DNA of 64,000 nt from a bacterium (lineage in GTDB: Bacteria; UBP7; UBA6624; JBBIMK01). Shown here one piece after another: positions 13,999 to 47,765 of this stretch. The stretch's first letter is position 1. Each line of letters opens with the position of its first letter. Position numbers and translations under genes: made by a program. Below the pieces are notes generated by a model, which saw nothing but the letters and a program-made list of their open reading frames with translations, was not told the origin of the DNA and did no database searches. The stretch lies in contig JBBIMK010000009.1 in NCBI GenBank assembly GCA_037444445.1, positions 6-64,005 of the forward strand, read 5' to 3'.

Positions 13999-15297
13999 AT
14001 GAGCCTTCTGACTTCTCTCCTGTTCCTGCTCTTCACGGCCGGGACGGCAGCCATGGAAGCGGCGGTATTCTCCACAGACCGGGGGCTACTGCGAAGGCTG
14101 GAAACTCAGGGACATACTCGCGCCAGGCTCCTCCTCCACCTCCTTTCTTCTCCGGAACGCCTCGCCGCTTGTCTCCTCATCACCCTGAATGTTTGCGTCA
14201 TCTTCTTTACCTACACCGCCACCCTCTTTTTCATCCATCTTTCCAGGGTTTATCCTCACTGGAAGCAGGGGATTCTTGTCGGTGGTGCTTCCCTCACCAT
14301 CCTTCTCGCTCTTCTGTTGGGCGAAGTCATTCCAAAAGCGTGGGCTGTGCATCATACCCCCGCTTTCTCCCTTCGTGTGGCACCCTTACTGAACCTTCTC
14401 CAGCGGGTCCTGGCTCTGCCCGTCTCCTTCATTCTGTGGTTTCTACAAAAGCCCCGGCTGGCTATGGGCAAGGCGGCGGAAACGGCTGTCTTTGAATCCC
14501 GCCTGCGCACTCTCGTGGATTTGGCACAGCGCTCGGGAGCCCTGGAAGAGGAGGAGCGGAAGATGATTGAAGGTGTATTTGAATTTGGCGACCGAATCGT
14601 AAAAGATGTCATGATTCCCAGAATTGACACCGTAGCACTGGATGTGGATACCCTGCTGAAAGAGGCTATCCAGACCATCGTGACCACGGGCCATTCCCGC
14701 ATCCCCGTCTACCAGGAAAGCATTGACCGCATCCTCGGCATTCTGTATGCCAAGGACCTGCTGTCCAGGAATTTCTCCCCACACGAGGTGGCCACTCTCC
14801 CCATTTTTGGGCTTGTCAAGCCTGTTCTGTTCATCCCTGAAACCATGCCTGTCTCGGAGGCATTTGCGAAACTCCGACGGCAGAGAATTCACCTGACTGT
14901 GGTAGTAGATGAATACGGTGGCACAGCGGGAATCGTCACCATTGAAGACCTCCTCGAAGAGATTGTGGGGGAAATTCAGGATGAGTTCGACCGGGCGGAA
15001 GCCCCACCCATTGAATTCCTCACCCCGAATAAATCCCATGCCATCGCACTGGGCCGTCTCACCATTGATGAACTCAATCAAGAAATGAACCTGAACCTTC
15101 CCGTGGATAAAGACTACGACACCCTGGCAGGGTTCCTGTTCCACGAAATGGGACGCATCCCCAAAAAAGGGGAATCCTTTCACTATTCATTCGTGGAATT
15201 TCAGATTCTGGAAGTCAGGGGAAACCAGATTCAAAAGGTGAAAATCCTGCGCTCACCCGCTTCTAAAACCCCTGAACCTTCCTCTCACATCTTATGA
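13999..15297 (+). CDS. corC: CNNM/CorC-family transporter-associated protein (DUF21 TM domain + CBS pair + CorC_HlyC domain)
   Basis: N-terminal 4-TM DUF21 region, a tandem CBS pair (DVMIPRIDTVAL..., HLTVVVDEYGGTAGIVTIEDLLEEIVGEIQDE) and a C-terminal CorC/HlyC transporter-associated domain. It follows ybeY as in E. coli ybeZ-ybeY-ybeX. Confidence 0.8.
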   Translation: MSLLTSLLFLLFTAGTAAMEAAVFSTDRGLLRRLETQGHTRARLLLHLLSSPERLAACLLITLNVCVIFFTYTATLFFIHLSRVYPHWKQGILVGGASLTILLALLLGEVIPKAWAVHHTPAFSLRVAPLLNLLQRVLALPVSFILWFLQKPRLAMGKAAETAVFESRLRTLVDLAQRSGALEEEERKMIEGVFEFGDRIVKDVMIPRIDTVALDVDTLLKEAIQTIVTTGHSRIPVYQESIDRILGILYAKDLLSRNFSPHEVATLPIFGLVKPVLFIPETMPVSEAFAKLRRQRIHLTVVVDEYGGTAGIVTIEDLLEEIVGEIQDEFDRAEAPPIEFLTPNKSHAIALGRLTIDELNQEMNLNLPVDKDYDTLAGFLFHEMGRIPKKGESFHYSFVEFQILEVRGNQIQKVKILRSPASKTPEPSSHIL

Positions 15298-16277
15298 CCA
15301 TCGGGCTCTGGATTCTTCCTCTTTCCATTCTTTTCGCTTGCCTCCTGTTTTCCTTCCTGTTTAACCTCGCTGAAATGTCCTTTTTGAATATAGACCGGGT
15401 AAGACTGCGGAAAGAAGTGATGGACCGCATCCCTTCCGCCCTGGCAATCCATCGTTTAACCTCCAACCCCCTATCCCTTTTCGGCACCTTACTGCTGGGA
15501 ATTACCGCCTTCCTTCAAATCAGCAGTATCCTCTTCACCTATCTTTTTTATCCTCTCGTTTCTCACATACCCTACCTGATGGATATTCTGGTTCTACTGT
15601 ACACCCTCATTGTTATCCTGTTCATTGAGGCTTTTCCACAGATTCTGGCGTTGCGGGAGCCCTATCACTTTGCCCGGCGCACACTGCCTTTTGTTCGCCT
15701 TTTTCAGGTTCTTGCTTATCCTGTGGTCTGGCTCCTCACGCTGATACCGCGAACCCTGATGGGAGACACATCCGCCCGAAGTTTTCTGACCATTCCACCC
15801 CCTTCCCGAAAGAGGCTGTTTGAATCCCTTTTAGAGGGTCCGCCTTCGGAAGAAGCCACGGTCATCTACCGTGTTTTACGGGCGGCTGAAACCCCCGCCA
15901 CCGCTGTGATGACCCCCCGGAAGAGCATCGTGTTTGTAAAATCCAGCGACCCTTTGGAAATAGTTTTCAAAACCTTTCAGGACACCCAATTCTCCCGCCT
16001 CCCCGTCTGCACCAAATCCCTGGACGATGCCACCCGATTCCTCCATGTGAAAGACCTCCTCCAGAAGCTGGAAACCCCTACCGAGGACTGGCTGTCCCTC
16101 ACCCGCACCCTCCCCTCCTTCCCCGAATCCACCTCCCTCTACGACCTGTTGAAACGGATGCGTGGACAGGCTTACATCGTCCTCCTTCGTAACCCCAAAA
16201 ACCAGGTCTCAGGCCTCCTCACTATGGAAGACATCCTGGAATACCTGAAAGGCGAAATAGAAGACGAATACGACTGA
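15294..16277 (+). CDS. CNNM-family paralog (DUF21 + CBS pair, lacking the CorC_HlyC domain)
   Basis: Overlaps the upstream stop (ATGA). Hydrophobic N-terminal half, then a CBS pair ending LTMEDILEYLKGEIEDEYD. No C-terminal transporter-associated domain. Confidence 0.7.
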   Translation: MTIGLWILPLSILFACLLFSFLFNLAEMSFLNIDRVRLRKEVMDRIPSALAIHRLTSNPLSLFGTLLLGITAFLQISSILFTYLFYPLVSHIPYLMDILVLLYTLIVILFIEAFPQILALREPYHFARRTLPFVRLFQVLAYPVVWLLTLIPRTLMGDTSARSFLTIPPPSRKRLFESLLEGPPSEEATVIYRVLRAAETPATAVMTPRKSIVFVKSSDPLEIVFKTFQDTQFSRLPVCTKSLDDATRFLHVKDLLQKLETPTEDWLSLTRTLPSFPESTSLYDLLKRMRGQAYIVLLRNPKNQVSGLLTMEDILEYLKGEIEDEYD

Positions 16278-16332: not shown

Positions 16333-17073
16333 ATGATGAATGGCGAGGAACCGATTCGGCAGAGAACGCCTCTGCCAGGGAATCGCACCGAGGCAGCCTC
16401 GCGGATGGACTTCACCTTCCTCCGCCACGATGCACCTCCGGAAGCATTCCATCGGTTTCTTCAATATACTCTTTTCTATCCCTTCGCCTGCATTATCGTT
16501 CCCCCGGCTTTATTCAACACTGCACGCACTTTTTATCAACAGCAGGGAGTTTCTAAACCCCTCGGCAGTGTGGTGGGTTTCCCTTTAGGATTTACGCCCA
16601 CTGAAATCAAGAAGGAGGAAGCCCGCTTCCTTCTCCAGAACGGTGCTGTGGAAATAGATATGGTGGGGAATCTTTACTGGCTGAAATCCGACCTTTCCCG
16701 ATGGCAAAAAGAGGTGCAGGAAGTTTCTTCTCTGGTTCACTCTTATCACGGCGTGTTCAAAATCATTCTGGAAACTTCTCTGCTGACTTCGGAAGAAATT
16801 ACTTCTGCCAGCCGGGCATCCATTCCTGCGGGTGTGGATTTTGTGAAAACCTCAACGGGTTATTTTGGCGGCGCTACTGTAAAGACGGTAGCCCTGATCC
16901 GGCAAGCCGTGGACAGGCGGGTAAAAATCAAAGCCTCGGGCGGAATCCGCACCCGTGAGAATTTTCTCCAGATGTTAGAGGCGGGCGCCGACCGCATCGG
17001 CACCTCCCACGCTATCCCCATCTTGCAGGAATTTGAAGATTTTGAAAAACAAGATTTGAAACAGGTGGAATGA
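16333..17073 (+). CDS. deoC: Deoxyribose-phosphate aldolase
   Basis: DeoC class I aldolase motifs (VVGFPLG, Schiff-base Lys region VDFVKTSTGY, IKASGGIRT). The start could be the internal ATG at 16405. Confidence 0.8.
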   Translation: MMNGEEPIRQRTPLPGNRTEAASRMDFTFLRHDAPPEAFHRFLQYTLFYPFACIIVPPALFNTARTFYQQQGVSKPLGSVVGFPLGFTPTEIKKEEARFLLQNGAVEIDMVGNLYWLKSDLSRWQKEVQEVSSLVHSYHGVFKIILETSLLTSEEITSASRASIPAGVDFVKTSTGYFGGATVKTVALIRQAVDRRVKIKASGGIRTRENFLQMLEAGADRIGTSHAIPILQEFEDFEKQDLKQVE

Positions 17074-17766: not shown

Positions 17767-17802
17767 AATCCATTGCAAGATGACAGCGGAGGTGGTTTTA
17801 TC

Positions 17803-19389
17803 GTGAAAAGGTTGGGGCAGTGGGCAGGAATTCTCGTTTCTATCGGTATCTGGTGCACCACCCTGTGGGCAAAACCCGGTCCCTTCCCCGATGTCCCCAT
17901 CGACCACTGGGCTTATGACGCCGTGGAGTATCTGGCTTCCAAAGGTTTTGTGGAAGGATACCCCGATGGGGAGTTCAAGGGGGACCGGACGCTGACCCGC
18001 TACGAGTATGCCATGATTATCGCACGAATGGAGCGAAAACTCCTTCAGGAACTCAAGGAAATGGCAGGGCCATCAGCGGAAATCCTCTCCATGATTCAGC
18101 AGATGAAGGATGAATTCTCTGCTGAACTGGAGGATATTAAAGCCAAACTGGCTTCCCACGAGATGCGGCTGGAAGATTTAGAGACCCAGGTCGGTGGATT
18201 ATCCCAGCGGACGACTGCTCTGGAGCAGAAGGTGGAGAAGCATGAAGAAATTCTTGCCGCTCTGAAAAAGATTGATGTCTCAGGCTCCGCTTCCTTTGAT
18301 TATATCTGGGGAAGCGGGCAGAAATTTAATCCCACCCTTGCCGACTTCTCTCAGTCGGATGTGGACTTCTCCTTCGTTCTGGCTCTCCATATCCCTGTTG
18401 CCGAGACGGTGACCCTGGATTCTAAGGTAACCACCCTGGGACCACTGGGGACGACGAACATCTATGGCGGTGCTGGCACCGACCCTCCCCAGCCCTGCCC
18501 TCAGGGCATCGGCAAGCCCTTTGACCCCCTCGTTTCCTATAACTGCATCACCTACGGGAAATATGATGTTTTCCGCACCGGCGATTATCGCCTCCCCTCC
18601 ACCAACGACCAGACGAACAAAAGTTTTGACCTGAATGAAGCCTACATCACCTGGACGAAGGATTGGGGAAATATTCAAGCCACCTTCTGGGGTGGGAAAT
18701 TCAACCCCCACTGGTTTTCCTCCCCACTGTTCTTCAACCCTTACATCGGATACGAAGGCTTCGGCGCCATCTTCAACTGGAGAAAGAAATGGAACCTGAC
18801 GCTGGTAGATATGCGGACCGAGGACTTTACACAGGGTGCCCTCCCATCCCTTAATGACACGGACCTGGAATTGATTCAACTTTCTTCCCAGAATCGGGCG
18901 GTAAAAAATCTTGACTTCTCCTTCGGCTGGGTTTTCTCCAATACTTCCGACCTTCGCCAGGTCATCTCTGATTCCCCGGAAACCTTCCTCACCCATCTGG
19001 CTTATCGGATTCCCTACCGCCGCCCGCTGAAAATCTATGCCGCATTCGCTTCCAACGGTGAAGAATTCCGTGGCCCTCCCAATGCCAGCACGGATTACGC
19101 CGATGACATCTTCGCCAACTCCTGGATGATTGGAGTGAAACTCCGAAAAGCCGAAAATATTCGGGATTGGGCTCTGGATGTCAACTGGAAGGATGTGGGG
19201 CTGAACACGGGCTTGCCCGGCTACTTTACCCCGGATACGAAATTCCTCACCGCTACCTTTTCCTACCGGGCGGCTAAAAATACCCTCTGGAGCCTCCGCA
19301 TTGATTCCGGCACCTTCGGTGATAATGCCAGCATCCCCCGAGAGCCTACCGTTACCTCCTTCACCACAGGCGTCACCACCACCTTTTAA
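17803..19389 (+). CDS. S-layer-homology (SLH) domain outer-membrane protein: SLH + coiled coil + C-terminal beta-barrel (OmpM/Slp-like OM-peptidoglycan tether/porin)
   Basis: Signal peptide after GTG 17803, with GGAGGTG 8 nt upstream. SLH motif DVPIDHWAYDAVEYLASKGFVEGYPDGEFKGDRTLTRYEYA. Heptad-rich segment at about aa 90-170. Alternating beta-strand-like C-terminal half ending in aromatic Phe (TTTF), typical of OM beta-barrels. Confidence 0.78.
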   Translation: MKRLGQWAGILVSIGIWCTTLWAKPGPFPDVPIDHWAYDAVEYLASKGFVEGYPDGEFKGDRTLTRYEYAMIIARMERKLLQELKEMAGPSAEILSMIQQMKDEFSAELEDIKAKLASHEMRLEDLETQVGGLSQRTTALEQKVEKHEEILAALKKIDVSGSASFDYIWGSGQKFNPTLADFSQSDVDFSFVLALHIPVAETVTLDSKVTTLGPLGTTNIYGGAGTDPPQPCPQGIGKPFDPLVSYNCITYGKYDVFRTGDYRLPSTNDQTNKSFDLNEAYITWTKDWGNIQATFWGGKFNPHWFSSPLFFNPYIGYEGFGAIFNWRKKWNLTLVDMRTEDFTQGALPSLNDTDLELIQLSSQNRAVKNLDFSFGWVFSNTSDLRQVISDSPETFLTHLAYRIPYRRPLKIYAAFASNGEEFRGPPNASTDYADDIFANSWMIGVKLRKAENIRDWALDVNWKDVGLNTGLPGYFTPDTKFLTATFSYRAAKNTLWSLRIDSGTFGDNASIPREPTVTSFTTGVTTTF

Positions 19390-21255: not shown

Positions 21256-22572
21256 TCAGTCTACCTCTTTTCTCTTCACGCCTTCTTTCAAGGAATGAGC
21301 GTCAACGCTGTGGATGATGTGCTCAAAATCAGGGCTCCACTGAGAAGTATGGCACTGCCGGCATTGAGTCCTGCGAGGCACGCTTACTTTCACCGAGGGA
21401 TTCAGGGTATGCGGAAGTGCAGGATTATGACAGGCTTCACATTGCACATTGATGAAGGTGGGCGTGTCTTTGATGTTCATAAACCCACCCGGTTTCCCAA
21501 ATCCCAGAGTATGGCAGGTAAGGCATTCGGGGTTATATTCATCCCGTGTGGGAATAAGAGAATTGATGGCGCGAGCGTGGCGGGAAGAAACCCACATTTC
21601 ATAGATTTTCTCGTGACAGCGCCGGCAGGAGAAAGCACCGGAATAATCTTTAGGTTTCCACCCCCGGCTTAACCCCAGGATTTCCCGCTGTTTCATATAC
21701 TCTTCCAGTAGAGGCAGAAGGGTCTTTGCATCTTCCTGCGTAGCCTTCACTGGATGCCATTTCACCTGCAGTTGGACAATGCTCCCGGCACGGATTAGCA
21801 TCACCAGCTCCGCCACCCCGAGTTGTGTCGCATTCCAGGACAGGATATGCACTTTACCGTATGATTTTGCGACGACAGGGGTATCTTTCTCCCGCATATC
21901 AGGAATGCTTCCCAGAACCAGGTCCACCTCTGGATACTGGTTGAGCCATTTCATCACATCCTTCAGCCTGCTCTCGTGAACCAAAAGGGCGAGGAGATTA
22001 CTTTCTGCTTTCAGCGTTTGCATGGCTTCTTCTAATTGTTGGGGATTTAGTGTAACATCCCCCATAGAAGGAATGCTTTTGGGGATGGCAGTAGCCACTC
22101 CGAGGACAAGTCCTCTACCAATCTCCTTTTTATAGATTCGGGGCAGGGTAGGGGATTCAATGTAAGTTCCGACAGCGGTGCACTTGCCTTCGGACAGGGA
22201 TGTCAGGATGCGGGCGCTGGTGAGAATTTCCTGCGGCCCCAGGGCGCAAACATCCACCCCTGCATCATCAAAACCCTGCCGAAATAGAGCGGCGCTCTGC
22301 TTCGCCATCACCAGGTCAGGCGGCAAAAAATTCCCCCCCTCCAGCGTAACCTGGATATTTCCCGCAGAGCGGAGCTCCTTTACTATCGCTACCTCTTTTA
22401 CCCACCCACCCCCCGAACCAGAACTCAGGATTCTTCCGTCCTCCCCATAAAGCCAGAGAAAACGAACAGTTTCTGACCTGTAAATGCTACAGGTGGAAAG
22501 GACGAAGAAAATCAGGAAATAACGGCGTCTCCACAACAGATTCACGGGCAATGTTCCATTCCTGCTACCCAT
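21256..22572 (-). CDS. Secreted multiheme c-type cytochrome (four CxxCH motifs) with a roughly 300-aa N-terminal domain of unknown function
   Basis: N-terminal signal/TM anchor. C-terminal 120 aa contain CRRCH, CLTCH, CEACH and CRQCH heme-binding motifs. Confidence 0.7.
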   Translation of the reverse strand: MGSRNGTLPVNLLWRRRYFLIFFVLSTCSIYRSETVRFLWLYGEDGRILSSGSGGGWVKEVAIVKELRSAGNIQVTLEGGNFLPPDLVMAKQSAALFRQGFDDAGVDVCALGPQEILTSARILTSLSEGKCTAVGTYIESPTLPRIYKKEIGRGLVLGVATAIPKSIPSMGDVTLNPQQLEEAMQTLKAESNLLALLVHESRLKDVMKWLNQYPEVDLVLGSIPDMREKDTPVVAKSYGKVHILSWNATQLGVAELVMLIRAGSIVQLQVKWHPVKATQEDAKTLLPLLEEYMKQREILGLSRGWKPKDYSGAFSCRRCHEKIYEMWVSSRHARAINSLIPTRDEYNPECLTCHTLGFGKPGGFMNIKDTPTFINVQCEACHNPALPHTLNPSVKVSVPRRTQCRQCHTSQWSPDFEHIIHSVDAHSLKEGVKRKEVD

Positions 22573-22616
22573 TCTCCCTGGGAGTGAAAAGATGCGGAGA
22601 ACGAAGGCTTCTTTCT

Positions 22617-22865
22617 TCAGTGTTCTATATCCTCTCGGGCTTCCCAGTAAGGGCAGTAGAAGGGATGGTCCTGAAGGAGCACCCGTCCATCAGAGTTTCT
22701 CATCACCGGCTCCATCATCGGATATTCCTCTCGCTTCCATCCTAAAAGATGGCAGGTTTCCTCTACACACAAAGTATCCTCCAGCCCTTGAACAGCATAC
22801 CCGCGCTCTTGAATCTCAAAATGTCTGCAGTTGATGCAGTGCTGAAGGATGGGTTTCATACCCAT
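22617..22865 (-). CDS. Small cysteine-rich protein (possible metal-binding), translationally coupled to the FBP aldolase/phosphatase gene
   Basis: 82 aa with Cys at CxxC (CINC), CVEETC, CPY. Its ATG overlaps the upstream TGA (TGATGG). Function unknown. Confidence 0.4.
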   Translation of the reverse strand: MGMKPILQHCINCRHFEIQERGYAVQGLEDTLCVEETCHLLGWKREEYPMMEPVMRNSDGRVLLQDHPFYCPYWEAREDIEH

Positions 22866-23965
22866 CAGGATTCTTTCTGAAACCGGTCCTTCAGCCTTTC
22901 AATAATTTGTGGGATGGTGGTGTATTCCATATTGGGAAGGGAAAGGCGGTGGGGTTCAAAAGGTCCATGAAGGCGCATATAAGAGGCAATTTCACCGGCA
23001 AAATAGCGGGAATTGTCAAAGGCAGGGTCGTCAAACAGGTCCACAGGACCCACCAGTTGCCCATTCGCCAGTTGAAATCCTGCAGAAATCACCCGGGGAG
23101 GTCCGTCAAATCGGCTGGTCTGGGCTTCCCGAAAGGGCACGGGGAAAAGGGGTCCAAAGTGGCTCCCCCGATTCCACCCTTCCACCAGATGAGGGAAGGC
23201 AAAGGCTTCCAGGATTTCCCCCACAGCAGGCAACCCGGCTTGCGCCCGAACTATCAGAACCGGGTCATCCTTCCCTACATACTTCCCCGCTATCAAAGCA
23301 AGTTTCTGCGTGGAGGCAGAGGCGCAAACCATTCCACCTCTGGTGAATACCTTCCGGACAAGATACCGCTCCACTGCTCCAATCAATGCCAGCAAATCAT
23401 ACATCTCTTCCGGGCAGTTGAGGCGAATGCTCTGATTTTCTTCTATATCCAGGATTTCAAACTGGAAGCCATCGTGCATTTTGGGGTCAATCACCAGGCC
23501 AGCGGTGCAGAAAGGGTCGGCAAACATACGATATACAGGAAGATTCCAGGCGCCCGGTGAACATTTATCCCCCATAAAAATCACCACCGGCTCTGATGGG
23601 CGTTCCTCTATTTCCATCTCCGCTACCCCCGGTCCTAAACCTTTCACATTCCCGCTGAAGGCATCTTTCAGAAGGTCCTGCCCTGCCCCATACAACTTCA
23701 ACTCCTTCGCCACCTCCGTGCATCCGACAAAAGTATCCCAGGCGATTTTGTGAATCTGCTCGCTATTTTCACCCATTTTATGAGTGAGAATCAATTCCAG
23801 GTCATCCCCGCAGGACATCACACAAAAATCAACAAGAACCCCTTTTTCCTTGTGAGCCTGAAGTTGCTCCTCAGCGGTGTCAATCAGGTCTTCGTGGATA
23901 TGCGAGTGCCCCACATACCCCCCCACATCTGCTTTAATCACACTCAGCGTTATTTTTTCAGCCAT
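22865..23965 (-). CDS. fbp: Bifunctional fructose-1,6-bisphosphate aldolase/phosphatase (archaeal-type, class V FBPase)
   Basis: N-terminus MAEKITLSVIKADVGGYVGHSHIHEDL matches the hallmark FBPA/P N-terminus, with family-wide similarity over about 366 aa. The internal ATG at 23965 was chosen; AAGGAGGG Shine-Dalgarno lies 7 nt upstream. Confidence 0.88.
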   Translation of the reverse strand: MAEKITLSVIKADVGGYVGHSHIHEDLIDTAEEQLQAHKEKGVLVDFCVMSCGDDLELILTHKMGENSEQIHKIAWDTFVGCTEVAKELKLYGAGQDLLKDAFSGNVKGLGPGVAEMEIEERPSEPVVIFMGDKCSPGAWNLPVYRMFADPFCTAGLVIDPKMHDGFQFEILDIEENQSIRLNCPEEMYDLLALIGAVERYLVRKVFTRGGMVCASASTQKLALIAGKYVGKDDPVLIVRAQAGLPAVGEILEAFAFPHLVEGWNRGSHFGPLFPVPFREAQTSRFDGPPRVISAGFQLANGQLVGPVDLFDDPAFDNSRYFAGEIASYMRLHGPFEPHRLSLPNMEYTTIPQIIERLKDRFQKES

Positions 23966-24497
23966 CCGGCATCCCTCCTTTCGTTCTTCGTCCATACTCA
24001 TTATAACAAATTGTGGATGAGCGTTCGCAGTAACCCGCCCGAGATTTTTCCTCACTCTATGAAATGAAACTTTATCCCGACCCACTCGTGATTCCTGAAA
24101 CCAGGTATGTCATTTTCTGATTATTCCTATTGTCTACTTCCTGAATTTCGTGGTTGAGGATATTCCTCACCTCCTTTCCATAAGAGGAATGGAAGAATAC
24201 GCACGAGGGATTTTACCTGACCATTTGACTTTGGAATAATTTTGTAGTCATATTATCGTGCTCATGCTATGAGATTTGATAAGGGAAAGAGGAAGCCTTT
24301 TATGACAATGAGGGGGCAGGGAGAAAGTGGTAGGGTGCCGGGTTTTATCTCCTCCTTATGCCTTTGCTTTTCTATATCTACCCCCCCCCGTATAATCGCC
24401 TTTTCAACCCTTTCTGCTGGCTCATCCCTAAAATTCCTCTCTTTTTGGGAACTTTCTGGCAAAAAAGGAAGTCCACTTTATCAGGAGGTGGTAAAAT

Positions 24498-26918
24498 ATG
24501 AAGCGAGGGAAGGTGGGAATTCTGCTGAAGGCAATCTGGGGCGCCTTCCTGTTGTATGCACTTTTTTCCTGCGGCGGAGGGGGTTCCGCTACTACACCTG
24601 CGCCTGCGGCCCGAAGCCAGAAAATAATAGTGCCGTTTTCGGCGGGAAGAGGTGGTTTGCCGAGCAGCTCCCATAGAACTGCAATGACGAACCCGGCTGA
24701 GAATGCGACAGATACAACCAGCTCATCCCTGCCTCCAGCGACCCTGACACAGGAAGGTTTGCTGGAAGGACCGCCGGATTGGCGAGTCAACGAGCATCTT
24801 CCCTCTGTCCCGTTCCCGGAGTCGTTTCTCTGGGAGTTTGTGGATTCCCGGGGCCGCGCTTTCACGGAAACCGGCAGGGCTCACATAAATGTGCGGGAGT
24901 TCGGGCTTGTCCTCAGGGACTCCACGACACTGTTTCAATTGTCAGAACTGCTTCACCTCACGGATGCGTCCATATTGGGCGCAAGCCCAAAGATGAAGAT
25001 GCTTTTTGTGCGCCTCAAACAGCGACGGAATCTGGACGAATATCTCGCCTTGCTGAATCGTTTAGAAGAAGACCCCCGAGTGGAGAGGGTGATTCCGCAA
25101 GTGACTGTGTACAAAGCCTCAGCGCTCGTTCCTACTGATGAAGCAGACTGGCGCTGGGAAGTCAGTCCAGGTGGAGGCAACTGGAATTTTGAGGCAGTAA
25201 GAGTGCCCCAGGCATGGAGCCTTATGGGCTGGATTTACAGGAGACAGAATCTGGTCACCGGGGGCATCGTAGACGAGGGTTTTTTCCTTCACCCAGACCT
25301 CTCAATGAACCATGAGGAATTGAACGGTGCCAATCCAAGACTTGACAATCATCATGGAACCGGAGTTGCTGGAGTGTGGGCTGCCCTATGGGGCTCCACC
25401 GTGCAACAGAGATGGCTGGACGGAGTGCTACCGAACTCTATTCTGACCCTGTGGGGTTTAACGGGGCGAAATGTGCCGCCCCGCGGACCCGGTGACCCTC
25501 GCTGGCCCCCTCCCTGCGACATTTTCGGGCCCCAGGATGACTACGGCAAACAGTGTCTCTTCTGGCTCCAATTGTTAGATGACCTTTTCTCACAGAACAA
25601 GTTTCTGGACCTGCACCCGGAAATCAGCGTCCTGAATCTCAGCATCGGATATGGGTGTTTGTTCGCAGGCGATGCGGCGGATCCTCCCGGTAACCCTCCT
25701 GACGAGCGAGCCCGTCAAATCGCTGAGATGCTGGGCAGGGATTTTGCGCACCACTTCCAGAGCCGGGCAGACACTCTTCTACTGTTCCAGGCTGCTATGA
25801 ACTGCTACCTGAGGCGCCTGGATGAAGCCGAGGACGATGCCCGCTGGAATTCTCCCTCCTGCTATGCGTCCATAGTGGGCGACCCCACCTCCAATCCCCC
25901 TGTGCCACCCCAACAAAACATCATCTGCGTGGAAGCCACGAAGAACGCGGCGGGTTATCCGCTCGCCGGTTTCTCCAATGTGAGCGGGCAACTCTCCGCC
26001 CCGGGAAATAGCGTCACAGTATTGCTTGGAGTAGATGAAACAGCCGGGACTTCCGGCACATCCTATGCCAGCCCGCTATCCGCCGGTGCGGCATCCCTTC
26101 TGAAGTCATTCCGTCCGAGCCTGACGGTGACGCAGATTCGTCAGGCGCTTCTGACCTATTCCCGCTCCACGCCGGCAAACCAGCCTGAACCTCGGCGCGC
26201 ACCGATGCTGGATGCCTTCTACGCTCTCACCGGGCTGGACCTGATGGCAGGAAATACCGATGTCCAGAGGGAACTGGTGGATGCGGATGATGGGACGGTG
26301 GACGGGAACCTGCGGATGAGGGTATTCACCAGCGACCCGAACCCGGATGATGTTCACGCCATCCCGCCCGGAGGAACAACCCCAGACCACCGACGCGGGG
26401 ACGGGTATGTGACCCCACGCGATTTCCGCACCTTCCGGGATGTCTTCCTTCAGGTTCGCTCTGTGGAGGATGCCAATCTCGCTCCGCTCATCTCTCTGGA
26501 CGGTTCTGCGACGCATTTCAAGAGGGATTTGAATATGGACGGATGTTTGAGGGCGAGGGCGGATGCCTGCGACCCCAGCACCAATCCCTGCGTCCCCGCC
26601 AATCCCCCACACCCGGTGGACATCCCTACTCCCACCAACTGCTCGGCAGAAACCGGCGCTCCGGTGGAGAATGTCTATCCCCGGTATGATTTCAACGGGG
26701 ATGGGAGAATCACGGCTAATGCGGTCAATCCCGCCTCCGGCGATGTGGCGCCGTTCAAGATTGACCCGGACACCCACTGCACCGGGCTCAACCAGCCTGC
26801 CGGATGTCTGCGGGATATAGATGTGATGGCGCAGGTGTGGGATGCCTCTTCCTGCGAGCTTCCCGCCGGAGAATCAGCCGGTTGCCCGTCAGCACTATAT
26901 AGAGAATGTGGGCAATGA
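24498..26918 (+). CDS. Subtilisin-like (S8) serine peptidase lipoprotein with C-terminal Ca-binding dockerin/EF-hand-like repeats
   Basis: GGAGGTG RBS, then a signal peptide with lipobox LFSC. S8 triad motifs are present: Asp region GGIVDEG, His HHGTGVAG, Ser GTSYASPLSAG. Downstream are D-x-D/N-x-D-G loops (YDFNGDGRI, DLNMDGCLRA). Confidence 0.75.
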   Translation: MKRGKVGILLKAIWGAFLLYALFSCGGGGSATTPAPAARSQKIIVPFSAGRGGLPSSSHRTAMTNPAENATDTTSSSLPPATLTQEGLLEGPPDWRVNEHLPSVPFPESFLWEFVDSRGRAFTETGRAHINVREFGLVLRDSTTLFQLSELLHLTDASILGASPKMKMLFVRLKQRRNLDEYLALLNRLEEDPRVERVIPQVTVYKASALVPTDEADWRWEVSPGGGNWNFEAVRVPQAWSLMGWIYRRQNLVTGGIVDEGFFLHPDLSMNHEELNGANPRLDNHHGTGVAGVWAALWGSTVQQRWLDGVLPNSILTLWGLTGRNVPPRGPGDPRWPPPCDIFGPQDDYGKQCLFWLQLLDDLFSQNKFLDLHPEISVLNLSIGYGCLFAGDAADPPGNPPDERARQIAEMLGRDFAHHFQSRADTLLLFQAAMNCYLRRLDEAEDDARWNSPSCYASIVGDPTSNPPVPPQQNIICVEATKNAAGYPLAGFSNVSGQLSAPGNSVTVLLGVDETAGTSGTSYASPLSAGAASLLKSFRPSLTVTQIRQALLTYSRSTPANQPEPRRAPMLDAFYALTGLDLMAGNTDVQRELVDADDGTVDGNLRMRVFTSDPNPDDVHAIPPGGTTPDHRRGDGYVTPRDFRTFRDVFLQVRSVEDANLAPLISLDGSATHFKRDLNMDGCLRARADACDPSTNPCVPANPPHPVDIPTPTNCSAETGAPVENVYPRYDFNGDGRITANAVNPASGDVAPFKIDPDTHCTGLNQPAGCLRDIDVMAQVWDASSCELPAGESAGCPSALYRECGQ

Positions 26919-27717
26919 TTCCGGGGACGAAAACAATGACCCCTTTCAATGCGACTCCACCTGGAGGTGGCAGCCCCGCCGATACCTCCTTGCTGACCGG
27001 AACAGCGACCAGAGAATAGATTACCTGTATTCCGTGGATTTACATTTTTCGGGGGCGGCGCTTCCCTCTTCAGGAGCCCCCTCTATTCTCATCGTTGTCA
27101 AATCCCGGATGCCGGATGGGAATAGGCAGGATGATGATGGAGATGGGATGATAGATGAACCCTATGACCGTTCCTTCACCCGGCACATTCGGATTCCTGC
27201 CAGTGAGTGGGCATCCCAGCGGCTGGTGCTCACCGTTCCTATCTATTCCCTCGTCGCACAGGACCCACCGCCGCCGGACCAGTTAGGGAGAATTCGTGTA
27301 TCGGTCAAAGGGGTGAGCATCCAGCCTTCTTGCTGGGAATATTTCCCCCTTCATTACGGGCAGGATGTGGCGGTGCCGCCCCGGCAGGGCGTTGACCCCG
27401 CCACCCCCTGCCCTTCCCCTCCCACCCGGGCCATACACCTCGGGGGTCCCAACGACCGGCTGTATAAAATCCTCACCTTACCTGACGGCGGTTATCTGGC
27501 GGTGGGCGGCACCTACACAATGGCAGGTGGAACCCCACCAGATATGTGGGTTTTCCGGCTGGGAAGCGATGGCAATGTTGTGTGGGCGAAAGCCTATGGA
27601 GACCCCCATATGGGCAACATTTATTTTGGCAAACAGGATAGCGCAACGACTGCCGCAATTATCCTTCAGGTTCCCTACAGACTCCAGCAAGCCTCTATAA
27701 TAGCCAGAAGCCAATAG
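26827..27717 (+). CDS. Probable frameshifted continuation of the S8 peptidase (Ca-binding repeat / beta-rich C-terminal domains), or a separate overlapping ORF
   Basis: Frame +1 relative to the peptidase. The first stop-free codon is at 26827, right after an in-frame TGA at 26824. It overlaps the peptidase ORF by about 90 nt and has no signal peptide of its own. It carries the same kind of acidic Ca-loop motifs (NDSGDENND, ADRNSDQRIDYL). Confidence 0.4.
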   Translation, partial: WRRCGMPLPASFPPENQPVARQHYIENVGNDSGDENNDPFQCDSTWRWQPRRYLLADRNSDQRIDYLYSVDLHFSGAALPSSGAPSILIVVKSRMPDGNRQDDDGDGMIDEPYDRSFTRHIRIPASEWASQRLVLTVPIYSLVAQDPPPPDQLGRIRVSVKGVSIQPSCWEYFPLHYGQDVAVPPRQGVDPATPCPSPPTRAIHLGGPNDRLYKILTLPDGGYLAVGGTYTMAGGTPPDMWVFRLGSDGNVVWAKAYGDPHMGNIYFGKQDSATTAAIILQVPYRLQQASIIARSQ

Positions 27718-27845: not shown

Positions 27846-28451
27846 TTAAGGGTAATACTTGACCCGAACCCCTGCGAGGTAAGTGTCCACTATCGTTTTG
27901 GTTTTCAGGCTATTCGTCCGATAAACATAATATAACTGGTCTTTGATGTAAGGTTTAATACGCTCAAAAGTGAGTTCCGACGGCTTTAATCCGTAGGTCT
28001 TCATCAGAGTTTGGTTCCATACCTCTTTATTTTCCTCATAATATCTGCGAACCTCCTCATCCGTGGGCTCCAGCAGGGAACGAAAGAGAGCGTCTTTGAG
28101 CAATTGATTCCGGATATACTGGCGATAATCTTCGTCCGTTAAACCCCTTTCTTTCAGCCATTGCTGGTAGTGCTGGAGGTTCTGGAAGCGTTCCGAGATG
28201 TCTCGCGACAGGGCTTTATCCACCGTGGAATCCGAAACGCTGAAGCCCCGGGCGACCGCGGCGCGAACCAGGACAAAATCCTGCACATATTCGTCCAGAA
28301 ACCGCTGGAATGATGGGTCCTTTACCAGGTCCTCGGTTAGTATAGGAACCTCGTTAATCCACAGTATTGGACGGGCAGTGGGCCCACGGCACGAACCCCA
28401 TAAAACAAAAAAGGCTATGACCCCCAGCGGTTTCAAAACCCTCATTTTCAT
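27846..28451 (-). CDS. Periplasmic SurA-N-terminal-domain-like chaperone (no PPIase domain)
   Basis: Signal peptide, then a helical region resembling the SurA/PpiD N-terminal chaperone domain. Overlaps the upstream stop by 4 nt. Confidence 0.5.
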   Translation of the reverse strand: MKMRVLKPLGVIAFFVLWGSCRGPTARPILWINEVPILTEDLVKDPSFQRFLDEYVQDFVLVRAAVARGFSVSDSTVDKALSRDISERFQNLQHYQQWLKERGLTDEDYRQYIRNQLLKDALFRSLLEPTDEEVRRYYEENKEVWNQTLMKTYGLKPSELTFERIKPYIKDQLYYVYRTNSLKTKTIVDTYLAGVRVKYYP

Positions 28452-31279
28452 TTCTCCTCTCCCTCCTTAGAAATCGGGATAACCCCGGCATCCAGCCAGG
28501 GACTCCAGAAAAGTAAAAGACTGCCCCGCTCCATTGATGTCCCGCGATATGAAATTCTCATTCTTCTTTCCCCTTTTACTTCCTCCAGCCAGAGCACCAC
28601 CTCATTTCTCCCAATTTCCATGCCCTCCTCCGGGGTAAGACCTGTAATTCCATAAAATTCTACTCCTGTTGCATGGCGGATGTGAACACATAGAAAAGGG
28701 AGTGGCGCTCTTGGAACGAGGGAAAGGAAAAGAGAAGAGCCATTCACATCTGATTGAAATTCCGTTCTGACCTCCAGCAAAGAAGGAGAAAGGGAAGTGC
28801 AGGAGGCTGAGGTAGGCTTGCCCAGATGTCTATCGCGAAGGGCTTCCTCAGGAAACAGAGTGCACCGCACAGGAGGCTTTCCCTCTATCACGGGCTGAAC
28901 CACAGAGCGGAGATAATCACTCATAGGGAAATTCGCAGGAAGCAGTGGAAGAGGAGAAATTTCAGAGGCTTTCTTCAGGAGAAAATGGAATGGGAAAGCC
29001 GATGGAAGAATAGAGAAAGTTTTCATTCCAGGGGGTCGCAGAAGAGAAAAAACAGCGGTGGCAAACGGACTGTAAGCGGTAGGTTCTTCCGGCAGGAAGG
29101 CACCGGCTTTCGCTACCACGCCCTCATCCACTGCCTGCCCTTTCTCCTGCAGCGCTCTTAAAGCCAGTAGCGCCCATGCGGTGGCCTCTACATTTCCCTT
29201 CTTCATCGTTCGCAAAAAATGAAACCCCCCGTCCGACTGTTGAAACCGATAAAGCCAGCGGAGCAGGATAGAGTCGGAAAATTCCCTATCCGGGAGGAAG
29301 GAACGGGTGAGCAAATTCAGAAACGAAAAATCTTCAGAGCCTGCAGAAGCCGTAGAGACTTCCGCAATAGATTGAGAAAACAGGAGCGGTTTCCCTTCCA
29401 CTGAAAAGGCCCGGATGGTAATCGGCCAGGATGGGTCAACAGAATTCATCGGGAGAACCCTCTGGAATGAGGTTCTTTCGCCCTTCCGCAGGTCCACCCG
29501 CACCGGCACATCGCTACGAACCACCAGAGTGGGGTCTGAAACTGTGGAGGGTAAAAAATCCGCCTCCAGCCTTTTCTCCTGAGTATCAGCGATGGAAGAT
29601 AGGCGAACCTGAGTATAAATGCCCTCAGGAACCTGTAAAATTCGCGATGTGAATGCGTAAGAACCCCCCGCAGGCTCAATCAGGCTCAACCGATAATAGC
29701 CCGGCGAAGGTGGTAGCGAGATCCGTGTTTTCTCATCACCTGAAATCGGCTGAAGCAAAAATGCTGATGACAGTCCAGAGGATGAAAAGACAAAGGTGGA
29801 GTGCTTTTCCACTCTCAGGGTGGAAAGAGGAAGGGGAGGTGGAGTTCCCCCAAGGAACTCCGTCAGGCGGAAGGAAGGAGGAGTCAGTAAAAGCCATCCC
29901 TCTTCTACCTCCGGATGCTGAACCGTTAGCAGGGCTCCACCCAGAAGCACCTCCTCGGTCTGATAAGTCAAAGTCGGTGGCGGAATATTCGCCACCGGCA
30001 CGAAGGTCTGTTGAACCTGCAATCGGCCAGATTCCACCCATTCCTCACTCATCCAGAAGCCCGGTGCATAGGCTTCCGCAAGGGGCAGACGAACCTCCTG
30101 CCCCGGCTTGAAAATGCGAATGCCATCAGGCAAATAAAAATAAATCGTCTTGAAATCTGAAGGAGGCAAACTGTAAACCCCTCCGCTATTCAGGGAAGAA
30201 TCTTCCTCTCCGGTGAACTTCCAGAAATACTCCTCTCCATCTCCTTCAAGCCAGACAAAAGAATAGGGGCTGGATACAGTGGATAAGGGGGGTGCAAGAG
30301 TTATTTTCCCCGAAGTCCGGGAGTCAAAAATTCGGGTGGACGAAATCCATTCCTTTTCTCCATCTTTTATTCCATACACCGCAACCTGAAAAGGCCGGGG
30401 TGCACGGGGAAAGTAACTCAATCCCTCGCCGTCCGAGGTTAACGGTGGAAGTAGAAGAAATCGGGAGGGCTGGATGATTTCCACCCTGTAAGGCTCCCTC
30501 CCATACCCCTCCAGTTGCACTTCAATTTCTTCATCAAAAGGCTGGGGAAGGTGAAAAAACTGGAGTAAGGAAGAAACGGGAGAAAAGTAGAACAATCTCC
30601 GGGAAGAATCAAAAATCCTGAAAGAGCGGTGCTCTCCACCCCGCAGGAGTAAAGAAACTGCCCTCTCATCAACGGTATAGACCCCATCCGGAGAAACGCC
30701 CTCAGGAGCCGATGGAATTTCTATCGGAAGTTCATCTATGTCTTGCCCTTTCTGAACCCTGAGGATAGAGCCTGCGGGAACCATATCCAGTGAAACTTTT
30801 CCGCCTCCATCCGTTAGCCCGAATAGAAGTTTTTCCTGCTGGAAGAAGAGAGAAAAGGACACACTTCCCACCGGTTTTCCTGTTCTTCGCTCCACCACTT
30901 CCAGATAGAAATATCGCCCTGTTGGGTGGAGTATCATAGATAGGGAAGTAATCAAAAATGTCCGAACCGCTTCGCAGGCGCCGGATTGGAAAATTGTGCG
31001 ATAATATCCTCGTTCCAGGGGCTTCTTCAGCGGTCCCGGGAAGGGCCCGGAATAGAGAGACTCAAATCCTCCCTCATCCTCCAGAAATTCTCCCTCCCAT
31101 TTTTCTACTTGAATCGTGAACGGTGGAGGGCAGGGAGGTTCACCCAGGGAAATCGTTTCACCGGGTGAAAAACGCCAGAGAGATGAAGCAGGGGTGGAAA
31201 CAGAAGCCACAGAACCTGCCATTAGAACCGCTAACCACCAGAGTGGAATTCGTGAAATTGAAAATGGGAGGGGTGTCAA
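28448..31279 (-). CDS. Large secreted alpha-2-macroglobulin-like / prenyltransferase-squalene-oxidase-repeat (alpha/alpha-toroid) protein
   Basis: 943 aa with a signal peptide. N-terminal beta-rich modules. C-terminal region has the QxxDGGF repeat (LLRWLYRFQQSDGGFHFLRTMKKGNVEATAWALLALRA) characteristic of the A2M thioester domain and of terpenoid-cyclase-like toroids. No CxEQ thioester motif was found. Confidence 0.45.
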   Translation of the reverse strand: MTPLPFSISRIPLWWLAVLMAGSVASVSTPASSLWRFSPGETISLGEPPCPPPFTIQVEKWEGEFLEDEGGFESLYSGPFPGPLKKPLERGYYRTIFQSGACEAVRTFLITSLSMILHPTGRYFYLEVVERRTGKPVGSVSFSLFFQQEKLLFGLTDGGGKVSLDMVPAGSILRVQKGQDIDELPIEIPSAPEGVSPDGVYTVDERAVSLLLRGGEHRSFRIFDSSRRLFYFSPVSSLLQFFHLPQPFDEEIEVQLEGYGREPYRVEIIQPSRFLLLPPLTSDGEGLSYFPRAPRPFQVAVYGIKDGEKEWISSTRIFDSRTSGKITLAPPLSTVSSPYSFVWLEGDGEEYFWKFTGEEDSSLNSGGVYSLPPSDFKTIYFYLPDGIRIFKPGQEVRLPLAEAYAPGFWMSEEWVESGRLQVQQTFVPVANIPPPTLTYQTEEVLLGGALLTVQHPEVEEGWLLLTPPSFRLTEFLGGTPPPLPLSTLRVEKHSTFVFSSSGLSSAFLLQPISGDEKTRISLPPSPGYYRLSLIEPAGGSYAFTSRILQVPEGIYTQVRLSSIADTQEKRLEADFLPSTVSDPTLVVRSDVPVRVDLRKGERTSFQRVLPMNSVDPSWPITIRAFSVEGKPLLFSQSIAEVSTASAGSEDFSFLNLLTRSFLPDREFSDSILLRWLYRFQQSDGGFHFLRTMKKGNVEATAWALLALRALQEKGQAVDEGVVAKAGAFLPEEPTAYSPFATAVFSLLRPPGMKTFSILPSAFPFHFLLKKASEISPLPLLPANFPMSDYLRSVVQPVIEGKPPVRCTLFPEEALRDRHLGKPTSASCTSLSPSLLEVRTEFQSDVNGSSLFLSLVPRAPLPFLCVHIRHATGVEFYGITGLTPEEGMEIGRNEVVLWLEEVKGERRMRISYRGTSMERGSLLLFWSPWLDAGVIPISKEGEEK

Positions 31280-32457
31280 ATACTCCCGACCATGGCATCA
31301 TCCGGCCGGTCAAACGGATAGACTTCAATTTCCGTCTTTTTCGCTTCCCGCAGAACCTGAAGTTTTAACTTATCATCCGGTCCTAACTGTCGGATGTTCA
31401 GCGCCAGGTCTCGTGGACTTTTATACAGGATTTCCTCGGTCACCAATTGGCCAGCGGGGGATTGGCGCGTGAACTTGGCGCCCAGGATAATGTCACCCAC
31501 CCGAAGCCCACGCTTGGCCGCAGGTCCTTTGAGATCCACAGTATCCACGATAATTCCTGCATCCTTCTCTATCCATTCTTCAGGCATACCGGCGAAAATC
31601 CGAAGGAGTTTCGTGGTGGGTGAAGCGATGACCCCAAACCAGGGGTGATAGATTTTCCGTCCCGCAATTAAATCAAAAGCATACTGCCGAAGGTCATTGG
31701 AAGGGAATACAATGTTCAAATTCTGCACTTCCCGCACCAGTTCTGTGGGAATGATAGTGGATTGCTCCACTGCCAGGGCATTGATGCCCAGCACCTCACC
31801 TCGCATATTCGCCAGCGGTCCTCCCAGATTGTATAGGTAAAAGCGAGCATCCGTCTGAATCACCTTCGGAACGAAGTAATCCCAGTTCATGTAGTAATCC
31901 CGAACGGAACTAATGACACCCACGGATGCGGCTACCGTTTCCCCCAGCGGATATCCGAGAGCCAGCACGGTTTCTCCCGCTTGAACTGCGGAGGAATCTC
32001 CGAAGGTAACAGCGGGGAAAGGACCCGGGCCCAGAATCTGGATGATGGCGAGGTTATTCCAGCGGTCATAATTCGCCAGACGGGCGGGCAGAATCCGCCC
32101 GTCGTGGAGGCGAACCTGCATTTCCTTCGCCCCCTTCACCTGTGTATACAGCGTAACCGCATACCCCTCGGGTGATACGATGAATCCTGAAGTTCCACCC
32201 TGGGCTATCAGACGCTGGAAGGAGCGACGAAACACGGGCGACTGATATAATGTCGTCACCACTTCCACAGACACCACCGCCGGCGCTACCTTCTCCACTG
32301 CTTCCACGAAGGCAAAACTTCCAGGGTCAAACACATAGGTGGGAGTCATTGCAGAGCAAAAAAGCAACAGGCTTACTCCCACCACCCAGAAGATGGAACT
32401 CTTCTTCCCCCGGCTATCCATCTTTTCACCCCTTTCCCGCCATTGGCTCCCAGCCAT
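31276..32457 (-). CDS. HtrA/DegP-family pseudo-protease with PDZ domain (catalytic triad replaced)
   Basis: Trypsin-fold + PDZ architecture. The His box reads VTLYTQV (no His). The Asp box reads NNLAIIQI (Asp to Asn). The Ser box reads YNLGGPL instead of GNSGGPL (Ser to Leu). Confidence 0.7.
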   Translation of the reverse strand: MAGSQWRERGEKMDSRGKKSSIFWVVGVSLLLFCSAMTPTYVFDPGSFAFVEAVEKVAPAVVSVEVVTTLYQSPVFRRSFQRLIAQGGTSGFIVSPEGYAVTLYTQVKGAKEMQVRLHDGRILPARLANYDRWNNLAIIQILGPGPFPAVTFGDSSAVQAGETVLALGYPLGETVAASVGVISSVRDYYMNWDYFVPKVIQTDARFYLYNLGGPLANMRGEVLGINALAVEQSTIIPTELVREVQNLNIVFPSNDLRQYAFDLIAGRKIYHPWFGVIASPTTKLLRIFAGMPEEWIEKDAGIIVDTVDLKGPAAKRGLRVGDIILGAKFTRQSPAGQLVTEEILYKSPRDLALNIRQLGPDDKLKLQVLREAKKTEIEVYPFDRPDDAMVGSI

Positions 32458-32466
32458 TTCTTTGCC

Positions 32467-33669
32467 TCAAACGGTTCCCCCGGCGCCCGCAGGGGGCTGG
32501 GGCTGCTCTTCTATCCGCAAAGTCACCAGTCGGAACACACCGCCCCGCCGAATGAAAAATTCCACCGAGTCCCCCACTGACATACTCCGAATCATCTTCC
32601 GAAGTTCAAAGGCATCTTTGTATACTTTCCCGTTAACGGAGTAAATCACATCCCCGGCGGCAAGCCCCGCCTGCTCCGCCGGCGAGCCCGGAAAAACCCC
32701 CTTGATTTTTACCGGATATTTCATTCCCTTGTAAAATTCATCTAATCTCAGAATCTCTTCCTTGATATAACGCTGAATATCCTGCTGTGGATTAAACCCC
32801 TGCTCTACACCGGGCCAGCCACCGATATAAGTAGGATTCCTCTCCTGAGGGGTCCAGAAGATGAAGAGCCCTGCCCACGGGTAAATCACCCGCCCGTATT
32901 TTAAGATGTCTTCCGCACTCTTCTTCGCATCGTTGATGGGGTAGAAAAGATTTTGTGCCTCCATCGCACTGGAACCCCAGGAGTTAATCCCAATCTGCTC
33001 GCCCCGGGCATTAAAAGTGGCTCCCCCGCTGTTACCGGCATTGATGGTGGCCGTGGATTGAATTATCCAGGTGAGTTCCTTACCATAGTCCGGATTATTG
33101 AAAACATCCTCCGCACTCATCAGCGGAAATGGATATTCAAAATCCTTCACAATACCCACCGTTACAGTGTTCACCAGCTGGAACTCTTTGAGCCGGAATC
33201 CCGGGTTGAATTGCTCAATCATAAATCCTAAGGAGGCATCGCCGGGAGAGCCAATGGCGAAAACCAGGTCATTTTTCTGAATCTTCTCAGAATCCGCCAG
33301 GTCTACATACGGGAAGACTCTGGGTTCCGGGGTGATGATTTTCACCAGGCCGAAATCCACCTTCACATTAGTGCCCACCACTTTCCCGGGAAGCACCTCC
33401 CCATTATCCAGAGTAATATCTACGAGTTTAGCGGAGGTGACCACATGCCAGTTGGTGTAGATATAGCCATCCGGCGAGACGATGGAGCCGCTTCCTCCAC
33501 CCCCCCCTGCTCCACCGGGGCTCCGATGTAACACCCGAACCATGGCAGGCTTCACTTTCGCCACCACCGGCGTCAGGTCCATCGTCGCTATCCCTTCCGC
33601 TCCCTGCTCCTCCGTTGCTTCCAGCGACAGCACCATAAAAGAAAGCAAAAGGATAGAAAGTTTTTTCAT
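32467..33669 (-). CDS. htrA: HtrA/DegP-family serine endoprotease with PDZ domain (catalytically intact)
   Basis: Signal peptide MKKLSILLLSF. His box YTNWHVV, Asp box VDFGLVKI, Ser box GNSGGATF, C-terminal PDZ. The ATG at 33669 overlaps the upstream stop (ATGA). Confidence 0.8.
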   Translation of the reverse strand: MKKLSILLLSFMVLSLEATEEQGAEGIATMDLTPVVAKVKPAMVRVLHRSPGGAGGGGGSGSIVSPDGYIYTNWHVVTSAKLVDITLDNGEVLPGKVVGTNVKVDFGLVKIITPEPRVFPYVDLADSEKIQKNDLVFAIGSPGDASLGFMIEQFNPGFRLKEFQLVNTVTVGIVKDFEYPFPLMSAEDVFNNPDYGKELTWIIQSTATINAGNSGGATFNARGEQIGINSWGSSAMEAQNLFYPINDAKKSAEDILKYGRVIYPWAGLFIFWTPQERNPTYIGGWPGVEQGFNPQQDIQRYIKEEILRLDEFYKGMKYPVKIKGVFPGSPAEQAGLAAGDVIYSVNGKVYKDAFELRKMIRSMSVGDSVEFFIRRGGVFRLVTLRIEEQPQPPAGAGGTV

Positions 33670-41460: not shown

Positions 41461-41510
41461 TCCTCATCGCCCCCTTTGCGTTTCATCTTCATTTTAATTA
41501 TACTCTATTT

Positions 41511-41549: not shown

Positions 41550-41589
41550 CATTATACGGGCGCCCCACAGAATTGGAAATGAACTTTCT

Positions 41590-47747: not shown

Positions 47748-47765
47748 TTCAGCACCACCTCCATA

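Follow-up and report, generated by a model that had tools for sequence, protein, structure and literature searches.

When analyzing a 64,000-nucleotide (nt) stretch of contig JBBIMK010000009.1 from a bacterium of the GTDB lineage UBP7, UBA6624, JBBIMK01 (assembly GCA_037444445.1; the whole stretch is called the window below, and positions refer to it), we noticed that the gene for a class V fructose-1,6-bisphosphate (FBP) aldolase/phosphatase, fbp, overlaps a small gene for an 82-amino-acid (aa) mini-protein with four conserved cysteines, which belongs to an undescribed family. The conserved evolutionary unit is the pair of fbp and the small gene, which is kept in a clade of uncultured thermophiles. 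The tetraheme cytochrome gene that follows in the window is a separate, lineage-specific neighbor of the pair and a variant of a known architecture. The three open reading frames (ORFs), all of them real genes, form a co-directional string on the minus strand in the order fbp (22865-23965), small gene (22617-22865), and cytochrome gene (21256-22572). Direct reading of the sequence shows that the fbp stop codon TGA (22867-22865) and the small-gene start codon ATG (22865-22863) have one base in common (tccTGATGGgt; TGATG junction at 22863-22867, minus strand), and a Shine-Dalgarno-like string (AAGGA/GAAAGAA) lies 7 to 8 nt 5' of the small-gene start, within the 3' end of fbp. An initial annotation of the locus had described a TGATGG overlap with a translationally coupled Cys-rich ORF, which agrees with the shared base at 22865; the coupling is deduced from the overlap.

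The trio of fbp, small gene, and cytochrome gene is kept with an identical TGATG junction at two related loci: L001, a 50-kb contig (IMG 3300010938) of a co-assembly from the Chocolate Pots hot spring (PMC6137239), and L093, a Logan contig from SRR11582170. Their small proteins are 74% and 98% identical to the window protein, respectively, with equal length and zero indels. The ratio of nonsynonymous to synonymous substitution rates (dN/dS) of the small gene is 0.33 against L001 and 0.12 against L093 (range, 0.12 to 0.35), and the remaining five frames of the 249-nt stretch have either stops or dN/dS values of 0.5 to 1.1. When the 44 observed substitutions were placed at random, the frame stayed open with at most 22 residue changes in 0.08% of 20,000 trials (P = 0.0008). 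Rfam and tRNA scans gave no match near the locus. The initial annotation had allowed for a spurious ORF without counterparts at orthologous loci; the ORF is kept in L001 and L093 and is also found beside fbp in two further lineages (L094-96 and L097-99). The 82-aa ORF is a genuine gene, and its family is undescribed.

An exhaustive HMMER search with the small protein, covering 1.84 billion representatives, returned 23 matches, all of 66 to 163 aa and aligned end to end, except for two repeat-protein artefacts. Searching with the family profile yielded 76 clusters, which adds an unannotated small-protein family of at least this size. In a 71-sequence alignment, from which all conservation counts were taken, C10, C13, and C38 are present in every member and C71 in 70, and the spacing of 24 residues between C13 and C38 is fixed throughout. 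D30 and W74 are likewise invariant, and H15, E47, and E75 are nearly so. Exactly four cysteines are found in 62 of the 71 members, and the last cysteine is followed by proline in 61. The window protein has cysteines at residues 10, 13, 33, 38, and 71; position 33 is Cys in this one member of the alignment and Tyr or Phe in the rest. The motifs listed in the initial annotation (CxxC, CxxxxC, and CPY) are all present in the window protein, but CxxxxC is not a feature of the family. The signature reads C10-x2-C13-R-H ... D30-T ... C38 ... E47 ... C71-P-x-W74-E75, i.e., one CxxC knuckle and two distal cysteines with spacings of x2, x24, and x26-32, the last cysteine standing in CP(Y/F/H)WE. The proteins are soluble, with about 80 residues and a median isoelectric point of 5.1, equal to that of the acidic window protein, and no signal peptide was found in the family. 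The longer members, checked for informative domain fusions, have low-complexity or acidic tails and nothing else.

The family is absent from Pfam, NCBIfam, and the PDB. The mini-protein itself matched nothing in Pfam or NCBIfam, and with 22 members as queries, no match to Pfam-A or NCBIfam was obtained at an E value of ≤0.01, the best sub-threshold E values being 0.048 in Pfam (DUF7140, 2 of the 22 members) and 0.087 in NCBIfam. A search of PDB sequences with the 71-sequence profile gave a chance match alone (E value of 0.98). The AlphaFold2 (AF2) model is small, beta-rich, and confident (predicted local distance difference test [pLDDT] of 85), and Foldseek found nothing in the PDB better than an E value of 0.9. 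The best matches, all insignificant, were zinc-ribbon mini-domains such as the NrdR N-terminus and RNA polymerase I subunit A12.2 (E values of 0.9 to 2; TM-scores of 0.26 to 0.39), which share with the mini-protein a CxxC knuckle running into a beta-hairpin. A classical zinc ribbon, however, has two CxxC (or CxxH) knuckles on two beta-hairpins, whereas the mini-protein has one CxxC, with C38 and C71 isolated. Because of the single knuckle and the lack of a significant sequence or fold match, we did not file it as a zinc ribbon. Judging from the sequence, the four cysteines presumably form a metal site, which would hold Zn in a structural or redox-sensitive role or perhaps an Fe-S cluster.

The two nearest homologs of the small protein beyond the window lineage are both encoded directly after a class V FBP aldolase/phosphatase (FBPase) gene on the same strand. 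At L094-96, from the NCBI metagenome-assembled genomes GCA_015492955.1 and GCA_027058205.1, the small protein is 46% and the FBPase 70% identical to those of the window, and the genes overlap by 14 nt, with a GTG start. At L097-99, from "bacterium JZ-2024 1," the corresponding identities are 42% and 72%, and the genes are separated by a spacer of about 190 nt, partly filled by a 46-aa ORF that overlaps the fbp stop. Of the three linked lineages, two still have an overlap between fbp and the small gene. Gene callers sometimes shorten proteins of this family: the deposited call for the L097 small gene (5941-6201; also in L098 and L099), P0006 of 66 aa, is truncated at its N-terminus and so lacks the CxxC, the true start being about 15 codons further upstream (MMQFIRVCATC...). 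The gene 3' of the small gene differs among the three lineages, with a cytochrome solely in that of the window. The initial annotation had proposed to look for conservation of all three genes; the trio is limited to the window lineage, while its core, fbp and the small gene, is conserved beyond it. The gene preceding fbp is on the opposite strand in L094 and L097, so fbp and the small gene could be a self-contained unit. Within the linked clade, the FBPases have diverged to about 70% identity and the small proteins to about 40 to 46%. A neighbor-joining tree of 84 FBPases places the linked enzymes in one clade with 69% bootstrap support, within which L094 and L097 group at 100%. The linkage probably has a single origin and has since survived considerable sequence divergence. 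A search of 80 other bacterial and archaeal FBPase loci with the family hidden Markov model turned up no member at distances of up to about 4 kb from fbp.

The remaining family members, some of them from bacteria named Candidatus Xenobia/Xenobium, are encoded by small genes that overlap a rhomboid protease gene on their downstream side, with a ComM-like Mg-chelatase gene next (L087-89, L092, and L102-104). L091 has a 54-nt gap in place of the overlap, and L090 has the rhomboid gene without the ComM-like gene. This coupling is retained down to 29% rhomboid identity (range, 29 to 58%). The gene for PPDK, a second gluconeogenic gene, lies 0.1 to 4 kb upstream of the small gene in most rhomboid-linked loci. 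One lineage has PPDK, the small gene, and an FGE-sulfatase-domain gene in this order, and in another the small gene is followed by a lipid A acyltransferase gene. A metagenome scan with an alignment of a four-sequence subgroup gave 5 loci, three of the rhomboid type and two too short for neighbors to be seen; no fbp match was found among the 5.

Our favored reading, which could equally well prove right or wrong, is that the four-Cys mini-protein is made with FBPase and is a metal-binding partner or regulator of this enzyme, or of gluconeogenic flux, in the linked clade. The one-base overlap would allow coupling by termination and reinitiation, through which the mini-protein would be produced together with FBPase. 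With a metal (Zn or possibly Fe-S) held by its four cysteines, it may then act as a protein-binding partner or regulator. Its target would be FBPase or gluconeogenic flux in the linked clade; in the family's sister branch, it would be the rhomboid protease that is translationally coupled to it. To our knowledge, class V FBPase has no established protein partner or post-translational regulator, and we found none in the literature on the enzyme; the fbp-coupled mini-protein is a concrete and cheap candidate partner. A bolder proposal, which we consider unlikely, sees in the mini-protein a subunit of FBPase dedicated to sensing metal or redox state, which would bind this otherwise unregulated, unidirectional "ancestral" gluconeogenic enzyme and turn it on or off; the module would be reused in trans to control rhomboid proteases in Xenobia-type bacteria. 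If true, class V FBPase would have its first post-translational regulator, and this regulator would represent a new small-protein fold.

Several observations weigh against a role with FBPase. The spacer in L097 means that tight translational coupling is not universal, and the single FBPase clade, with its 69% support, makes the linkage one evolutionary event and not three. Most family members do not lie beside fbp but upstream of a rhomboid, FGE-sulfatase-domain, or lipid A acyltransferase gene. The proximity of PPDK is confined to one related group of contigs (PPDK identities of 69 to 87%) and may be plain synteny. As to the metal site, one CxxC knuckle does not make a classical zinc ribbon, and the Foldseek matches to zinc ribbons are insignificant (E values of ≥0.9).

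The main rival, which we regard as possible rather than probable, is that the mini-protein is real and unrelated to FBPase: its ancestral partner would be a membrane protein, typically the overlapped rhomboid, and its adjacency to fbp would be inherited synteny. The small-rhomboid overlap is kept over the whole range of rhomboid identities given above (L087-L092 and L102-L104), and the other next genes also encode membrane or exported proteins, namely, the FGE-sulfatase-domain protein, the lipid A acyltransferase, and, in the window, a lipoprotein cytochrome. L097 moreover has a rhomboid gene 3 kb upstream of fbp, and the fbp linkage has a single origin. However, the small gene of the fbp-linked lineages is not followed by a rhomboid gene, and a search of the 64-kb window found none; each of the three lineages has its own downstream gene but the same upstream neighbor, fbp, and two of them have kept the stop-start overlap with fbp. 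Should the mini-protein have nothing to do with FBPase, the three genes would be an ordinary string.

It is quite unlikely, in our view, that the mini-protein is a small Fe-S redox protein, a ferredoxin-like carrier or sensor without Zn, which would couple carbon flux to the redox state. Cys-Pro is a typical feature of Fe-S ligands, and the count of exactly four cysteines in 62 of 71 members with proline after the last in 61 would suit such a protein, as would the IscA-like and cysteine-desulfurase-like genes 4 to 5 kb downstream in L083-85. These Isc-like neighbors, however, occur in one lineage alone, the spacing of x2, x24, and x26-32 fits no established Fe-S motif known to us, and ferredoxins were matched neither in fold nor in sequence.

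The initial annotation had suggested that the small protein could be a metal chaperone or redox regulator. A service of this kind to the downstream cytochrome, e.g., as a metal or heme chaperone or redox regulator, is very improbable. The small gene and the cytochrome gene lie 44 nt apart (22573-22616, minus strand) with no terminator-like site in the gap, so co-transcription of the two is compatible with the sequence; the scan found no minus-strand terminator or promoter match between 22572 and 22617, with counts at shuffle level and hence uninformative. The trio is also kept in L001 and L093, and a four-Cys site could bind metal. Against this, no cytochrome follows the small gene in L094-96, L097-99, or the other 12 contexts, and the mini-protein has no signal peptide while the cytochrome is exported and matured in the periplasm. 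We rejected the chaperone reading because the cytochrome is not a conserved neighbor and the mini-protein is cytoplasmic. That the ORF is a spurious overlap, or that the region is instead a non-coding RNA or attenuator, has a negligible probability: the window-L001 substitutions fall on the three codon positions as 13/14/17, a weak third-position bias, and the dN/dS of 0.33 is far above that of fbp, but the conserved frame, length, and start, the simulation, the state of the other five frames, the lack of an Rfam match, the confident AF2 model, and, decisively, a family of at least 76 clusters with invariant cysteines at fixed spacing rule it out.

FBP aldolase/phosphatase is often discussed as the ancestral gluconeogenic enzyme. 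The fbp product of the window (366 aa) matched PF01950 over profile positions 1 to 361 of 361 (E value of 1.7e-177) and the NCBIfam equivalog NF041126 with 578.4 bits, above the cut-off of 520. The ORF is open from 22865 to 24085 (GTG), and we set the start at the ATG at 23965, supported by homologs; the orthologue of L001, which starts MGEKITLSV, is 96% identical to the window enzyme with a dN/dS of 0.03. In the KYVGK motif, Tyr is residue 229 and Lys is residue 232, which we take to be the catalytic pair, with Lys232 as the Schiff-base lysine, by the numbering of published archaeal structures. On sequence grounds, fbp encodes a unidirectional gluconeogenic FBP aldolase/phosphatase. Relatives of this protein were found in 554 instances among GTDB species representatives, the 80 closest of them, with 64 to 72% identity, coming from Nitrospirota, Aquificota, Methylomirabilota, WOR-3, Gemmatimonadota, Planctomycetota, Elusimicrobia, other groups, and a few archaea. 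A 2025 review lists class V FBPase as fixed in several bacterial phyla (PMC12525153). The initial annotation had taken the enzyme as a useful lineage marker; since it is already known across many bacterial phyla, it is a weak one. Compared with class V FBPase as described (Say and Fuchs 2010; PF01950/NF041126), the window protein matches over its full length at the equivalog level, has Tyr229/Lys232 where the catalytic pair lies, and is of equal size, with no enzyme-level difference. What is new at the window, compared with class V FBPase loci elsewhere, is the conserved downstream gene for the four-Cys mini-protein.

The cytochrome gene encodes 438 aa with CxxCH motifs at residues 316, 350, 378, and 404, all within the last ~125 residues; the initial annotation had placed the four motifs in the last 120. 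This tetraheme c-type module (residues ~306 to 425; 21298-21657, minus strand) matched PF13435 (Cytochrome_C554) with 63.6 bits (cut-off, 20.8), and the Cys and His residues of the motifs are invariant or nearly so in the cytochrome-family alignment (A4). Its closest solved sequence relatives are the nonaheme OcwA of Thermincola potens (6i5b; E value of 1e-8), an extracellular electron-transfer terminal reductase (bioRxiv 10.1101/641308), and cytochrome c554 of Nitrosomonas europaea (1bvb/1ft5; E value of 1.4e-7 for 1bvb). Unlike these, the window protein has four hemes only, a fused degenerate 5'-nucleotidase domain, and a lipoprotein-type N-terminus. About 29 homolog clusters have the full architecture, and the identity to the L001 cytochrome is about 82% with a dN/dS of 0.15. 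As this relative comes from the Fe-rich Chocolate Pots hot spring, the cytochrome is relevant to electron-transfer studies.

The roughly 300 residues before the heme module had been described as a novel domain. Pfam gave no match in this part, Metallophos included, but the family profile (A4) found 5'-nucleotidases (E value of 2.5e-25) and SoxB (3.5e-16). The AF2 model of the cytochrome has a pLDDT of 79, with the N-terminal domain mostly above 85 and within 80 to 96. Foldseek with this domain placed 3ivd (E value of 3.4e-15), UshA, CD73, and SoxB on top (E values of 1e-13 to 3e-15; probability of 1.00), the alignments having TM-scores of about 0.5 over 270 to 360 columns. Based on the predicted model, the domain (residues ~33 to 300; 21673-22476, minus strand) has the 5'-nucleotidase/UshA/SoxB metallophosphoesterase fold, and we rejected its novelty. 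It shares this fold with Escherichia coli UshA, human CD73, and the SoxB thiosulfohydrolase, whose metal and catalytic residues are replaced in it: GD became GN, GNHE became GPQE, and GGH became GSI, with the equivalent of His220 alone kept, while the assignment of motif I (DxH) in the window protein is uncertain. The family consensus is equally degenerate (Gekel, Laqls, and lggs). As the catalytic and dimetal residues are replaced, the domain is presumably a pseudo-enzyme scaffold. The result removes a false claim of a novel domain and documents a tetraheme family on a dead 5'-nucleotidase scaffold.

The same architecture, a 5'-nucleotidase-like domain with a multiheme c-type module, is known from the UshA-like (seleno)protein NF041198. 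The window cytochrome scored 106.5 bits against this model (cut-off, 275), and its C-terminal 112 residues alone matched (model positions 401 to 517 of 519; E value of 1.3e-30). The N-terminal domain does not match the model, lacks the PCGU/CxU motif, and has lost the metallophosphoesterase motifs. With a score far below the cut-off and the heme module alone matching, the window cytochrome is not a member. The homolog P0100 has CNC where the window protein (residues ~50 to 56) has SSGS, and there is no PCG or CxC in the window N-terminal domain; the CNC recalls the CxU/CxC redox motif of the UshA-like selenoproteins. It may be that some members of the cytochrome family have preserved a redox-active site, one that is absent from the window protein.

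At its N-terminus (22489-22572, minus strand), the cytochrome has a probable lipoprotein signal peptide, with a positive stretch, a hydrophobic helix (AF2 helix at residues 11 to 30), and a lipobox-like LSTC ending in Cys28. The Thr at -1 is non-canonical; the aligned position of L001 has the canonical L-S-A-C. An alternative start is the GTG at 22545, and the gene call of L093 begins MNLLWRR. From its predicted features, the cytochrome is probably a lipoprotein that carries electrons in the periplasm, combining a four-heme module of the OcwA/c554 type with a 5'-nucleotidase-like scaffold whose dimetal catalytic site is lost.

The genes of the window are those of a diderm bacterium and include HrcA, PhoH, PilB/PilT/PilC, three pilin-like proteins, LptF/G with an ABC ATPase, glycosyltransferases, and an S-layer homology (SLH)-coiled-coil-porin protein. 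The matches to PF01950 and NF041126, together with LptF/G and the Pil genes, agree with the earlier placement of the enzyme in a bacterial genome encoding lipopolysaccharide and type IV pili. The SLH-coiled-coil-porin protein (538 aa; 17773-19389, plus strand) has an N-terminal SLH domain, a coiled coil, and a weakly porin-like C-terminus, resembling an OmpM-type tether, and implies an SLH-anchored outer membrane. A type IV pilus/type II secretion cluster (40339-49568, minus strand) has PilB-like, two PilT-like, and PilC-like genes, together with genes for three unusually large proteins (364 to 389 aa) whose sole feature is an N-terminal methylation motif.

Between a SurA-like gene (27846-28451) and fbp, the window has a subtilase S8 gene (806 aa) and a 291-aa ORF without a Pfam match (24498-27717, plus strand). 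In L001, unlike the window, the SurA-like gene stands immediately before fbp, and the stretch looks like a lineage-specific insertion. Further upstream of fbp, three tandem ORFs (393, 407, and 346 aa; 31276-34706, minus strand) align with three tandem HtrA-like Trypsin_2-PDZ protease genes of L001; the first, the sole one scanned in the window, matched Trypsin_2 and PDZ_2. Two large proteins of 943 aa (28448-31279) and 446 aa (35152-36492), both encoded on the minus strand, are without a Pfam match, and their L001 counterparts of similar size (926 and 446 aa) likewise have none. On the other side of the locus, two tandem genes for CNNM/CBS (CorC-type) divalent-cation transporters, the second without the CorC_HlyC domain, lie at 13999-16277 (plus strand). 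A 246-aa protein encoded 6 kb from fbp (16333-17073, plus strand) matched the DeoC/LacD aldolase family modestly (43 bits) and could be a class I aldolase-type enzyme. The GC content is 0.57 at 26 to 28 kb and about 0.52 elsewhere in the window.

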